9,265 nt of DNA from a virus (Monodnaviria; Loebvirae; Hofneiviricota; Faserviricetes; Tubulavirales; Inoviridae): IMG/VR virus record IMGVR_UViG_2609459852_000001. One strand, written 5' to 3'. Both the position numbers and the translations under genes were made by a program. The number at the start of each line of letters is the position of its first letter. The first letter of the stretch is position 1. This document shows, one piece after another, positions 1 through 9,265 of the stretch. The notes beneath the pieces were generated by a model. The model searched no databases. It had not been told where the DNA came from and worked only from the letters and a program-made list of their open reading frames with translations.

Positions 1-2125
<2,125 letters not shown>

Positions 2126-2206: not shown

Positions 2207-3421
<1,215 letters not shown>

Positions 3422-3434
3422 TTACCCCGCAAAA

Positions 3435-3794
3435 TTACTTGCCAATATTAAGTCCATTTGATTTAAATAAATCATAAACCAATCGATACACTCTATCCTT
3501 ATAAAGATATATGTATGAAATAAATTGAACATGGAGGATAATATTAAAGCAGTCCTGAATATTTAAAGGCAGGTAACTGAATGCAACTATAATAACATCG
3601 AGTTTATTAACATCGGAGATTTGACGAATAATAAAATTAACGGCAGATACAAGAGCATAATATGAAGTGTAGCAAAGACCAAGATAAGAAAGGAGCTTAG
3701 CCCATGCAACAGCTTTATCACCGATAACTCCTGCAATGAAACGTAGTGATTTTAAAACAACATCAACAAAAAAAGCACCTAAAATGGCCCACAT
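3435..3794 (-). CDS. pVI-like minor coat protein (distal tip, membrane protein)
   Basis: 119-aa strongly hydrophobic ORF at the gVI position between gIII and gI. Its ATG (3794-3792) overlaps the pIII stop codon (TGATG coupling), with GAGG about 10 nt upstream. AT-rich composition. Assignment by position, size and hydrophobicity. Confidence 0.6.
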   Translation of the reverse strand: MWAILGAFFVDVVLKSLRFIAGVIGDKAVAWAKLLSYLGLCYTSYYALVSAVNFIIRQISDVNKLDVIIVAFSYLPLNIQDCFNIILHVQFISYIYLYKDRVYRLVYDLFKSNGLNIGK

Positions 3795-5203
3795 CAGAGT
3801 TTTACCTCACGTTCAAATAATGTACGACGAGAAATAACAAAAACGCGTAACATGGTTATCATATAAATAGCATACTCAAGAACAGAACGAACATAATCGT
3901 CATAAGCTTTTGCAAAATGGCTTGTATCAATCTTGAAATTAATCGCGCCAGTCAACGGAAGATTAAAGCTAAATTGTAAAGTAAAAGGAAGAGCAGTTCC
4001 ATTATTTGTATTTACCAGTTTGTCAATATTAACTGTAAGCCAATTGTTATTATCATGACTCTCACTTCCCTGTCCTGGCAAGTAATGCGAAAGCTCCCCT
4101 AAAGGGAAATCCCCATCAGGCAAAGAAGAAGCTATATTCTGACTAATATCTTTAATACCATTGTCCAGTGAATTTAATGCATTATTCATATCAGTCTGAG
4201 AAACAGAAAAAGCATTATTTAAATCATTCACTGACACCCATATTGTTTTTAACCAGCCCAAAATACCATCAAGCCAGCCATTGTCATCGCCGGATGAGCC
4301 ACCGGAGCCTGAACTACCGCTACCGGATGAACCGCCGGAGCCCGAGCCGGAGCCACCGCTACCGGATGAACCACCGGAGCCTGAACCTGAACCACCACTG
4401 CCCGATGAGCCGCCGGAACCCGAGCCGGAGCCACCGCTACCGGATGAACCACCGGAGCCAGAACCTGAACCACCACTGCCGGATGAGCCGCCGGAACCCG
4501 AGCCGGAGCCACCACTGCCGGATGAACCGCCAGAGCCTGTCGTATTATCGCAATTGTCGTCGTCACAACCAGAGCCACTCCCTGTATTGTCGTCAGGATT
4601 TTTATTGGCGGCAGCCACGCCAACAGAACGCATACTCTGAGCGATACAATTCCCGTCGTCATCACACTCGTTAAAATCAATCAAATAACGACAGCCATTA
4701 ATTTCCAGGGACTGAGATTCCTGCCCGTTACCCGTATCAACCCAGACAACATCACCAAGAGAATATGAAAAGTCCTTAATTACCGGACGGGAAAGACAAT
4801 TTTCTTCGGTAACCGGCTTATTATATTCAGGTGTCAAATCACCCTCACCTCCCTGAAAAGCAAGGGTGCAGGTTTCCCACTCTTGCTTGTCTAAATCCCA
4901 GACTTTATATGCATGCCATTTGGCAGAAACAAAATTCCCAACGGTAGAAGGTGCGGCAGAAACCTTTGAAGGATTGTCGCCGCAATAATGAATTATTCCG
5001 GAACATGCATCAACACTGGCCCAGCCACAAAAAATATGACCAGCCCCCCTGGCTAATTTAATCGACGTCCCCGCGTCCGAATAAGCTGTCCTGCAGGATA
5101 AACGGCCTGCACACTGAACAAGTGCATCCGGATTTTCTTTCCCCTCAGCAAAAGAAAACGAGGAAAAGAACAAAAACAGAAACGGAAAAATAAGACGAAT
5201 CAA
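3794..5203 (-). CDS. pIII-like minor coat / adsorption protein with Gly/Ser-rich linker
   Basis: 469-aa ORF. Start is TTG at 5203-5201 (no in-frame ATG before the signal peptide) with AGGAG 7 nt upstream. Signal peptide MIRLIFPFLFLFFSSFSFA, a Cys-rich N-terminal domain, an ~80-residue Gly/Ser linker (GSGGSSGSGGSGS repeats), and a C-terminal domain ending in a hydrophobic anchor (YAIYMITMLRVFVISRR). This is the classic pIII architecture. Confidence 0.85.
   Translation of the reverse strand: MIRLIFPFLFLFFSSFSFAEGKENPDALVQCAGRLSCRTAYSDAGTSIKLARGAGHIFCGWASVDACSGIIHYCGDNPSKVSAAPSTVGNFVSAKWHAYKVWDLDKQEWETCTLAFQGGEGDLTPEYNKPVTEENCLSRPVIKDFSYSLGDVVWVDTGNGQESQSLEINGCRYLIDFNECDDDGNCIAQSMRSVGVAAANKNPDDNTGSGSGCDDDNCDNTTGSGGSSGSGGSGSGSGGSSGSGGSGSGSGGSSGSGGSGSGSGGSSGSGGSGSGSGGSSGSGGSGSGSGGSSGSGSSGSGGSSGDDNGWLDGILGWLKTIWVSVNDLNNAFSVSQTDMNNALNSLDNGIKDISQNIASSLPDGDFPLGELSHYLPGQGSESHDNNNWLTVNIDKLVNTNNGTALPFTLQFSFNLPLTGAINFKIDTSHFAKAYDDYVRSVLEYAIYMITMLRVFVISRRTLFEREVKL
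4289..4537. repeat. Tandem 39-bp (13-codon) direct repeats, about 6 copies, encoding the pIII Gly/Ser linker
   Basis: The motif CCGGATGA(A/G)CC(A/G)CCGGAGCC recurs at 4323, 4362, 4401, 4440, 4479 and 4518 (39-bp period), with a 33-bp variant at 4290. Copies alternate between two sequence variants, giving a 78-bp higher-order unit. In-frame with pIII. Confidence 0.9.
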
Positions 5204-5224
5204 GCAAAAACTCCTGAAATGATT

Positions 5225-5246
5225 AAAAAAGCGCCCCGAAGGGCGC
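5225..5246 (-). terminator. Rho-independent terminator downstream of the pVIII gene
   Basis: Perfect 6-bp GC stem GCGCCC (5231-5236) / GGGCGC (5241-5246) with a 4-nt loop, followed on the minus strand by a T6 run (A-tract 5225-5230 on plus). It lies 17 nt after the pVIII stop and just upstream of the pIII SD, matching the position of the strong terminator after gVIII in Ff phages. Confidence 0.65.
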
Positions 5247-5262
5247 TGTCGTTAAATAACTA

Positions 5263-5523
<261 letters not shown>

Positions 5524-5837: not shown

Positions 5838-6263
5838 TCAGCCTTTTTCTTTACCAGCGGGCAGTGCACCCAGCGGCTGACCGTCAAAACGTTTCATGGA
5901 GCCGGAAATAAAACGATACCAGACACCATGACGTTCAGAGCCTGTCGACCATGAGTTAACATCCACCGTGAGATAAACAGGTTTGCCCTGCAAATCAGGA
6001 CATGAATTAAAAAATTTAAAATCCTCCTCAGTACAGGAAAAGCGCTCATGCTCCTCACGGCGGACTTTTAATTTTCGGTCCTCATACGGATAGGCAATAA
6101 CAATGGCATATTTGGGTTTGGCCTCAGGGTTATAATGAGAACCCGTGGGTTTTAACTCCTCATCATTTATGACAGTGGCGTGAATAAAATATCCCGCCAT
6201 TGTCATACCTGCGGTAAAACCCTCAGGGGAAGGAAACGGAAAACTGTCATAAATTTGATTCAT
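5838..6263 (-). CDS. Hypothetical protein at the gene V position (possible ssDNA-binding protein)
   Basis: 141-aa ORF with ATG at 6263-6261 and a strong SD (GAGGAG at 6278-6273, 9-nt spacer), 30 nt after the rep stop. It occupies the slot of gV in Ff synteny but is larger than M13 pV (87 aa). Only weak local resemblance (QGKPVYL vs M13 pV QGKPYSL), so function is inferred from position. Confidence 0.5.
   Translation of the reverse strand: MNQIYDSFPFPSPEGFTAGMTMAGYFIHATVINDEELKPTGSHYNPEAKPKYAIVIAYPYEDRKLKVRREEHERFSCTEEDFKFFNSCPDLQGKPVYLTVDVNSWSTGSERHGVWYRFISGSMKRFDGQPLGALPAGKEKG

Positions 6264-6293: not shown

Positions 6294-9265
<2,972 letters not shown>

Follow-up and report, generated by a model that had tools for sequence, protein, structure and literature searches.

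Gene VI and the C-domain part of gene III in an Escherichia coli filamentous prophage appear, from a comparison of related loci, to be exchanged as a single unit, and the low GC content of this hypervariable cassette is a long-standing property across the prophage family. In the stretch of 9,265 nucleotides analysed here (the window), the segment from 3431 to 4252 has 33% GC, against 52% for pI, pIV and rep. The exchange pattern is that of ordinary phage mosaicism with a compositional correlate added.

The window matches the chromosome of E. coli O166:H15 at 100% identity and is best read as a chromosomal filamentous (inovirus) prophage, with the gene order rep-...-pVIII-pIII-pVI-pI(Zot)-pIV(secretin). 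A Pfam search of its proteins returned a P2 GPA-type rep and an IS110-type transposase. The backbone is well conserved, with amino-acid identities of 85–100% for pI across the prophage family and of 91–99% for pIV and 96–99% for rep against relatives. Among phages, the best relatives of pI are just 31–35% identical (fs2, VFJ, f1 and a Ralstonia phage), indicating that the family is absent from deposited phages; a megablast search of INPHARED phages with the whole window and a tblastn search of phages with pIII gave no match, and nothing was found on scanning GTDB species-representative genomes twice, once with pI and once with a pI alignment. This E. coli inovirus prophage family is uncharacterised. 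Some of its members form tandem copies beside hipA, in the dif region.

The AT-rich gene next to pI encodes pVI, homologous to that of Ff. A family profile aligned with a profile of M13, IKe, If1 and fs2 pVI (hhalign, 92% probability, E = 6e-7, 95 columns) and matched the PDB entry 8b3o ‘Head virion protein G6P’ over residues 15–108 (hmmsearch, E = 4.6e-5), while a single pVI sequence had no match in Pfam. The placement is as expected for a 110–120-aa hydrophobic protein between genes III and I: the gene starts where the pIII stop codon lies (3794), and 16 nt separate its end from pI. By its translation, pIII comprises a signal peptide, Cys-rich N-domains, a Gly/Ser linker (77–173 aa in relatives) and a C-domain that closes with a hydrophobic helix and then RR. 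The C-domain has no match among PDB sequences and its similarity to Ff g3p is confined to the membrane anchor (hhalign, 15.6% probability, 31 columns); an AlphaFold2 model of it from a 7-sequence alignment is of low confidence (pLDDT 41). Pfam Phage_Coat_A, the Ff TolA-binding N-domain, is not matched by the pIII of the window, and BLASTP of its N2 against M13 N1 gave E = 9.6. Sister N2 alleles do match Phage_Coat_A (34.8 bits in locus L004 and 30.8 bits in L005, cut-off 20.8), with E = 1e-10 in BLASTP, and on this basis the gene family is g3p and the window bears a different N2 module. Table 1 lists the features.

Table 1. Features of the cassette and its flanks in the window
Feature	Position	Strand	Description
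Gene I, Zot-type assembly ATPase	2207..3418	(-)	Pfam Zot; GC 0.49; conserved backbone flank of the cassette
pVI-pI spacer	3419..3434	(-)	Left compositional boundary (segmentation edge 3430/3431) and putative left recombination joint
Gene VI, putative pVI minor coat protein, 119 aa	3435..3794	(-)	ORF; family profile matches Ff/IKe/If1/fs2 pVI
pIII C-terminal domain, aa 309-469 and stop codon	3794..4279	(-)	GC 0.35, GC3 0.27
C-terminal membrane anchor of pIII	3815-3892	(-)	Within the C-domain
Conserved island opening the C-domain (GWLDGILGWLKTIWVSVNDLNNAFSVSQ)	4196..4279	(-)	Putative right-hand homologous-recombination joint
Gly/Ser linker	4280..4537	(-)	TRF: 39-nt (78-nt) tandem repeat, ~6 copies, GC 0.63-0.68
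pIII N-terminal part	4538..5203	(-)	Signal peptide and N1 4799-5203; N2 4538-4798; GC intermediate, 0.45
CLSRP island, N1/N2 boundary of pIII	4784..4798	(-)	Motif found in every pIII variant

The first-pass annotation had described pVI and the C-terminal part of pIII as an AT-rich block, and the measurements bear this out. GC is 0.338 over 3435–4288 (0.319 in pVI, the most AT-rich gene in the phage, and 0.352 in the C-terminal part of pIII), the difference from the remaining phage is highly significant (chi-square 78.9, p = 7e-19), and outside the block no 853-nt window of the phage goes below 0.424 GC. GC3 is 0.233 in pVI and 0.268 in the C-terminal part of pIII (CT), as compared with 0.39 in pIII-N, 0.45 in pI, 0.53 in pIV and 0.58 in rep. 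A 60-nt sample of pVI earlier given as about 27% GC proved typical of the gene, whose 60-nt windows have a median GC of 0.32 (0.22–0.45); in pIII-N, pI, pIV and rep, no 60-nt window had GC <= 0.30. Likelihood segmentation placed the boundaries at 3430/3431, in the 16-nt spacer between pI and pVI, and at 4252/4253, bordering the GC-rich Gly/Ser repeat, with 0.33 GC in the AT-rich segment and 0.46 and 0.66 in its neighbours. The apparent size of the break proposed at the repeat linker is inflated by the Gly/Ser codons of the repeat; GC3 changes only from 0.41 in N2 to 0.27 in CT, and certain relatives have a wholly AT-rich pIII and so no GC step at the linker. An approximate codon adaptation index, based on E. 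coli K-12 codon usage, is lower in the block (0.59–0.60 versus 0.62–0.70), though only by a small amount.

The segments pVI, CT, N1 and N2 were classed in an allele table of 20 loci of related prophages. Deep allele classes share 29–34% amino-acid identity in pVI and 44–49% in CT. Across the 20 loci the five CT classes give five combinations with pVI, and no pairing crosses between deep classes; N2 and CT occur in 10 combinations and N1 and CT in eight, as in free reassortment. This co-inheritance agrees with the earlier view of pVI and the pIII C-domain as one module, as does a comparison of the block with the N-domains, whose nearest relatives differ. For the block the nearest is L009, 97–99% identical to the window there and only 41% in N2; for N2 and the linker it is L008, which is 99–100% identical in these segments but 29% in pVI and 49% in CT. 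L004 has a pI ~100% identical to that of the window and a pVI just 34% identical.

The points at which homology breaks off define the candidate joints. In blastn comparisons with the window, the gaps extend over 3428–4781 in L004 and L007, 3428–5224 in L005 and L006, 3438–4187 in L008 and 4494–4781 in L009; on the left, homology of L004, L005, L007 and L008 stops at 3427–3437. On the right, the island that opens the C-domain is the sole part of the block alignable as DNA with other allele classes (72–79%). Sliding identity between the window and L008 rises from 0.53 to 0.95 near 4200, and chimeric proteins (e.g. P0012) change allele type within this island. At the CLSRP island, homology of L004, L007 and L009 to the window picks up again at 4782, and this island appears to be a further joint in relatives whose swapped tract takes in N2. 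The Gly/Ser repeat itself, earlier suggested as the recombination joint, has acted as one in part of the family: in the lineage of L009 and L020-22 the linker is chimeric, with an L004-type repeat followed by a window-type repeat, which places a crossover within the repeat in that one lineage, but for the window and L008 and for P0012 the joint lies in the C-domain island, which directly follows the repeat as the gene is read. Two other candidates were rejected, namely a conserved cis element within the block, as the alleles are unalignable as DNA outside the island, and an antisense gene, as the antisense ORFs are short or repeat artefacts.

The comparison of relatives also bears on the source of the low GC. 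Every cassette allele class in the 20 loci has 0.31–0.39 GC, against 0.48–0.55 for pI, pIV and rep of the same prophages, and the trough is kept in alleles that have co-diverged with their own backbone (L023, L026 and L010). A recipient-specific deviation was not seen among the 20 loci, sister alleles being equally low in GC, and the family-wide trough therefore carries no mark of a recent low-GC import. Distant relatives in Enterobacter, Salmonella and Edwardsiella have a weaker dip of roughly 10–18 points. The trough is absent from M13, IKe, If1 and fs2, where pVI is not AT-richer than its neighbour genes, ruling out that pVI is AT-rich in all inoviruses. Over eight segments, GC rises with conservation (Spearman rho = 0.88, p = 0.004), as does GC3 (rho = 0.76, p = 0.03). 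Between the a and a2 alleles, S/W differences are symmetric (71:67 and 66:76), and the polymorphism spectrum of the backbone (S>W 23 : W>S 11) gives an equilibrium GC of ~0.32, the block having 0.33. Polarised polymorphisms in the block show an AT>GC excess of 17:7 against ~12:12 expected (p = 0.04), with small numbers and an outgroup ~20% diverged; this excess is also compatible with a segment of foreign, lower-GC origin that is slowly ameliorating.

Acquisition from a lower-GC relative, as the first-pass annotation proposed, runs against the equal AT-richness of all allele classes and finds no low-GC homologues to draw on. Searches of two libraries of 5.8 and 1.84 billion proteins established no homologue of pVI or CT in lower-GC taxa, at a sensitivity limited by proteins that are short, divergent and fast-evolving; the named homologues in both libraries are from E. 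coli, bar a single member, on a 2.6-kb contig, that carries the label of a Porphyromonadaceae MAG, and E. albertii has a copy of the class B cassette. A recent acquisition of pVI and the pIII C-domain from the phage of a lower-GC host, with the Gly/Ser repeat as the joint and the GC content as donor signature, is in our estimation quite improbable. The GC3 drop is real and so is recent exchange (as between the pI and pVI of L004), a crossover did occur inside the repeat in the L009 lineage, the block has an AT>GC excess, and among the relatives in E. coli there is one whose backbone is lower in GC (L027, pI 0.44 and pVI 0.38). Yet the pVI of L027 is less AT-rich than that of the window, the window/L008 joint falls outside the repeat, named homologues apart from the one MAG member are confined to E. 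coli and E. albertii, and any allele filling the slot is AT-rich, such that exchange within the family leaves GC unchanged, while the a-lineage allele retained its trough as it co-diverged with the backbone. An older event is also unlikely, in which the ancestral pIII-pVI cassette was imported at low GC before the classes diverged, or in separate imports of classes that had diverged elsewhere, and is still unameliorated. The sharp left edge of the family-wide trough at a gene boundary, the 0.37–0.39 GC of pVI in E. coli Ff-type phages and the same AT>GC excess would suit it. However, with classes only 29–34% identical and synonymous sites saturated, a host-like local equilibrium should by now be visible in GC3; distant relatives with other replication modules have a similar dip, and the searches found no donor.

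Explanations that look to the encoded proteins or to regulation fare worse. Amino-acid composition is behind about half of the GC deficit, and AT-ending codons are behind the other half. The residues F/I/L/Y/N/K form 51% of pVI and 42% of CT, as compared with about 30% elsewhere; composition explains 0.11 of a deficit of 0.20 in pVI, and 0.075 of one of 0.17 in CT. That the trough is merely a by-product of two membrane-embedded, hydrophobic, Asn/Lys-rich proteins is nevertheless extremely unlikely, for the other half is synonymous (GC3 0.23–0.27 versus 0.45–0.58 in the backbone) and the homologous pVI genes of M13, IKe, If1 and fs2 do not stand out from their neighbours; the GC3 result refutes amino-acid composition as the sole cause. 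AT-richness could also be selected for regulation, by way of H-NS silencing of late prophage genes, slow translation of minor coat proteins that are low-copy and potentially toxic, or control of pI and pIV through polarity and internal promoters. E. coli H-NS generally binds DNA of the size and composition of the block (850 bp, 33% GC), promoter-like sites number 9 in 3200–5400 against 4.2 +/- 2.2 expected, and the codon adaptation index is slightly lower. We hold such selection to be very unlikely as the cause: any AT-rich DNA is expected to give promoter-like matches, the codon adaptation gap is small, no sequence element is conserved across alleles, and an Rfam search of the window matched no RNA family.

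We consider it probable that the segment is instead a hypervariable tip-cap cassette, swapped as a unit, whose low GC is long-standing and lies near an AT-biased mutational equilibrium. Such a cassette would comprise gene VI and the C-domain part of gene III, would cap one virion end by analogy with Ff, and would be maintained in the prophage family as several deeply diverged allele classes. Swapping would take place by homologous recombination at short conserved sequences flanking it, with the start of gene I and the spacer as the left joint; the right joint would be the ~28 conserved codons that open the C-domain or, in fewer cases, the Gly/Ser repeat. Being adjacent, with no conserved sequence between them, pVI and the C-domain would stay linked. 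In the Ff tip, five pIII C-domains are arranged around five pVI, and the complex closes the virion end and opens during infection (PMC10175506). To judge from this structure, the two prophage proteins would have to fit each other as well, though physical adjacency alone could be a sufficient explanation of their linkage. The low GC would most likely reflect poorly conserved alleles near an AT-biased mutational equilibrium, with the conserved, freely recombining backbone genes kept at a host-like GC. A more specific version, in which cassette alleles are too diverged for internal recombination and have relaxed to mutational equilibrium while GC-biased gene conversion or selection holds the backbone ~20 points higher, we regard as rather doubtful.

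In biological terms, phage mosaicism of this form is to be expected, and the finding is of modest interest as such. Its wider use is that a sharp GC trough in a prophage need not mean foreign import, and that sister genomes should be compared before a donor is inferred from a compositional ‘island’. The natural breakpoints suggest that N1 and N2 with the linker can be swapped independently and that the C-domain would have to travel with pVI, a map that helps in engineering the host range of filamentous phages and in designing display scaffolds. If the equilibrium reading is true, the cassette amounts to a natural experiment, inside one genome, on what sets the GC content of bacteria and phages; if it is general, ‘hypervariable, therefore AT-rich’ would explain low-GC cassettes without foreign donors.

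Among known systems, the prophage resembles Ff (f1/M13/fd; PDB 8b3o; Conners et al. 2023, PMC10175506) in its gIII-gVI-gI order, in a pVI homologous at profile level, and in a pIII that runs from signal peptide and N-domains through a Gly-rich linker to a C-domain with a membrane anchor at its C-terminal end. The succession of helices, beta strands and a long terminal helix predicted for the C-domain may be similar as well, judging by the model of pLDDT 41. It differs from Ff in its P2 GPA-type rep and IS110-type transposase and in a C-domain without significant g3p sequence similarity beyond the anchor; the pVI gene of Ff, IKe and If1 is not AT-richer than its neighbours, whereas gene VI of the prophage is. 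Mosaicism of this sort is familiar in filamentous phages such as VFJ-phi, a mosaic of the fs2 and VEJ/VCY groups (PMC3731265), with segments of different nearest relatives, short conserved joints and discordant gene phylogenies. In VFJ-phi, though, the foreign 700 bp lie beside the att/regulatory region, whereas the prophage unit is cut within gene III, at boundaries between domains, and always includes gene VI. CUS-1 and Ypf-phi, the dif-integrated prophages of E. coli K1 and Yersinia pestis (PMC4266046), are likewise enterobacterial inovirus prophages, and some members of the present family also lie in the dif region. Membership of that group was rejected, as L029, a CUS-1-like locus, lacks a secretin gene, carries a G2P-type rep together with an HTH repressor, and has a pI only 40% identical and a smaller GC dip (pVI 0.48 and CT 0.45 versus pI 0.55). 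Low-GC hypervariable cassettes with conserved flanks are also found in enterobacterial O-antigen gene clusters. The cassette shares with these its diverged alleles at one locus, its flanks as joints and the AT-richness of all alleles relative to the genome, but the O-antigen clusters are biosynthetic, whereas the prophage cassette is a 0.85-kb phage structural module.

The window, an inovirus prophage that sits between ybiB and hcxB, matches the chromosome of E. coli O166:H15 JNE070796 at 100% identity, and ~16 complete E. coli genomes out of 5426 contain near-unchanged copies. All of its genes lie on the minus strand (see table). We found no DNA-level match among deposited phages, and its pI shares just 31-35% identity with those of fs2, VFJ and f1. 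Together with related prophages it belongs to an undescribed family of inovirus prophages in E. coli; L numbers denote the loci compared. Membership in CUS-1/Ypf-phi was rejected, as the CUS-1-like L029 lacks a secretin gene, differs in its rep and has a pI identity of 40%.

Genes, exchange joints and blastn alignments, in window coordinates
Feature	Coordinates	Strand	Remark
DUF2726 gene	1-660	-	
pIV secretin	887-2095	-	
pI/Zot	2207-3418	-	
pI/pVI spacer			16 nt; joint, with gene I start
pVI	3435-3794	-	119 aa
pIII	3794-5203	-	469 aa
Conserved island, C-domain start	4196-4279		joint; sole block part alignable across classes
Gly/Ser linker	4280-4537		repeat interior a joint in L009/L020-22 lineage
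pIII N2	4538-4798	-	class A
CLSRP island	4784-4798		joint
pVIII-pIII spacer			joint
pVIII	5263-5505	-	
Two small ORFs		-	between pVIII and 141-aa protein
141-aa protein	5838-6263	-	
Replication endonuclease (rep)	6294-8297	-	P2 GPA-type
Transposase	8300-9265	-	IS110 family (DEDD)
L004, L007	21-3427, 4782-9265		aligned by blastn
L005, L006, L003	to 3427, from 5225		aligned by blastn
L008	to 3437, from 4188		aligned by blastn
L009	2137-4493		blastn, 97.6%; 4494-4781 not in common

The AT-rich block described in the first-pass annotation, covering pVI and the C-terminal domain (CT) of pIII, is borne out by its composition. GC over 3435-4288 is 0.338 (pVI 0.319, pIII C-terminal part 0.352; p = 7e-19 against the remaining phage), and the lowest value of any 853-nt window outside the block is 0.424. 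By likelihood segmentation, 3431-4252 stands out as a segment of 0.33 GC, with the pI/pVI spacer at one edge and the GC-rich Gly/Ser repeat at the other. In 60-nt windows, pVI has a median GC of 0.32 (minimum 0.22), while none at or below 0.30 occurs in pIII-N, pI, pIV or rep. GC3 is 0.233 and 0.268 in the block versus 0.39 in pIII-N, 0.45 in pI, 0.53 in pIV and 0.58 in rep. With the codon choice of the backbone (pI, pIV, rep) as reference, roughly half of the GC deficit lies in amino-acid composition (F/I/L/Y/N/K account for 51% of pVI residues and 42% of those in CT) and half in AT-ending codons; codon adaptation, by an approximate index, drops only a little there. The virion-protein segment 4543-6315 (pIII-N, pVIII, small ORFs, 141-aa protein) has an intermediate GC of 0.445 and a GC3 below those of rep, pI and pIV, so the phage has three compositional tiers, not two.

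Against related prophages, blastn returns highly identical flanks and abrupt gaps across the cassette. In the other allele classes, amino-acid identity with the window's proteins drops to 29-34% in pVI and 44-49% in CT, versus 85-100% for pI, 91-99% for pIV and 96-99% for rep; L004 has an essentially identical pI and a 34% identical pVI, so the exchange is recent. Across 20 loci (E. coli isolates, IMG/VR contigs and one E. albertii), pVI and CT are never mixed between deeply diverged classes, whereas N2 and CT occur in 10 combinations and N1 and CT in 8. Nearest relatives also differ along pIII, L009 leaving the window's sequence within pIII and L008 rejoining it there. These results support the earlier proposals of a single pVI-CT module and of its recombination, and the cassette is an ordinary, well-delimited case of phage modular mosaicism. 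The Gly/Ser repeat, suggested as the joint, serves as one in the L009/L020-22 lineage, whose linker is L004-type at its start and window-type at its end; usually the joint lies beside the repeat, in the C-domain island, where partial database proteins such as P0012 provide more chimeras. Relatives differ in repeat copy number, which gives linkers of 77-173 aa, and the long ORFs that cross the linker in other frames and on either strand (4168-4674 +, 4249-4680 -, 4281-4640 +) were discarded as repeat artefacts.

The instructive point of the case is that low GC is a trait of the locus, not of a donor. The postulated lower-GC relative is not supported: every cassette allele class is AT-rich (pVI 0.31-0.37, CT 0.35-0.39) in genomes whose pI, pIV and rep are at 0.48-0.55, and allele swapping inside the family would leave GC unchanged. 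The a2 and a3 alleles, diverged in step with their backbones, are also AT-rich; pI and pVI identities are 88% and 90% in L023, and 83% and 71% in L010 (overall nucleotide identity 73%). No lower-GC donor is visible among the homologues found, which fall into 4 pVI clusters by word search (8 at 50% identity among 1.84 billion representatives) and 9 CT clusters, the named ones all E. coli except for one short contig labelled Porphyromonadaceae MAG. The GC step where pVI meets pI is universal. The break reported at the linker does hold in the window, where the segment ends at the repeat edge, but it is allele-specific, since the entire pIII of L005 and L006 is AT-rich. More distant relatives have a pVI/CT dip of ~10-18 points (Enterobacter, pVI 0.40 and CT 0.42 vs pI 0.58; Salmonella, 0.42 and 0.43 vs 0.52; Edwardsiella, CT 0.36 vs 0.50), and such a dip is absent from M13, IKe, If1 and fs2.

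There are possible explanations for this AT-richness. When eight segments are compared, the better-conserved ones tend to have higher GC (rho = 0.88, p = 0.004) and higher GC3 (rho = 0.76, p = 0.03). S/W differences between a and a2 alleles run evenly in both directions (71:67 and 66:76), and composition has thus been stationary across ~20% divergence. Polarised polymorphisms in pI and pIV lean towards AT (S>W 23 : W>S 11), giving an equilibrium GC of ~0.32, near the 0.33 of the block. These observations fit a cassette that would sit at mutational equilibrium, with the backbone held at higher GC. Slow amelioration of the block would also fit, as W>S exceeds S>W there among polarised polymorphisms (17:7, p ~0.04 versus expectation, in a small sample). 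A regulatory role has no direct support: promoter-like matches are in modest excess, but a conserved element is absent, and an Rfam search gave no match.

A second AT-rich segment, 1-805, has a still lower GC of 0.286 and carries the nuclease-like DUF2726 gene at the prophage end opposite the transposase. L007 and L032 carry a shorter version of this gene, L005 one that is only ~73% identical, and a copy lies beside the Edwardsiella relative L031; none was seen in dif-type relatives. The gene looks like accessory cargo. The transposase gene abuts rep with a 2-nt gap (window, L001, L004, L007, L032) and travels with the prophage to varied intergenic sites (ybiB/hcxB, hcaE/hcaR, yoaB/yoaA). Members without it occur as tandem copies adjoining hipA, presumably at the dif site, so two alternative integration modules appear to exist in the family. 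The window goes no further than the start codon of the transposase gene, and a bridge or guide RNA region, if there is one, falls outside it. In L027, a metagenome relative (pI 51%), an IS110-type transposase likewise adjoins a GPA-type rep, and a TraX-family gene and another ORF are inserted between pI and the secretin gene (L027 7391-8152). Decaying copies include L006, a chicken isolate with a frameshifted pVI (L006 5055-5411), and L026 (4261-5559), where a frameshift removes the pIII C-terminal anchor. Between pVIII and pIII there is a strong terminator-like hairpin at 5230-5247 (-), AGCGCCCTTCGGGGCGCT with a T-run after it; in Ff phages, a terminator lies at the equivalent position after gene VIII.

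The 469-aa protein has g3p architecture, with a signal peptide, Cys-rich N-domains, a Gly/Ser repeat of 39-nt period and a C-domain that closes with a hydrophobic helix and then RR. In sister prophages, N2 matches Pfam Phage_Coat_A above threshold, with BLASTP to M13 N1 at E = 1e-10; the window's own N2 gave no Phage_Coat_A match. Its class A N2, also found in L008, L019 and E. albertii L032, is without this signature of the Ff TolA-binding domain, carried by class B and C relatives, and retains just the CLSRP start and similar Cys spacing; this domain may thus be a co-receptor-binding module of another kind. The 119-aa family profile matches that of Ff/IKe/If1/fs2 pVI (92% probability, E = 6e-7) and PDB 8b3o 'Head virion protein G6P' (E = 4.6e-5), with the motif LP-N---C--I in common. 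Because likeness of the pIII C-domain to Ff g3p is restricted to the anchor and its AlphaFold2 model is too poor for use, the co-functional pair put forward in the first-pass annotation draws on pVI homology and on Ff knowledge. By analogy with the f1 pointy tip, where five pVI are wrapped by five pIII C-domains (PMC10175506), the two products of the cassette would likewise act together.
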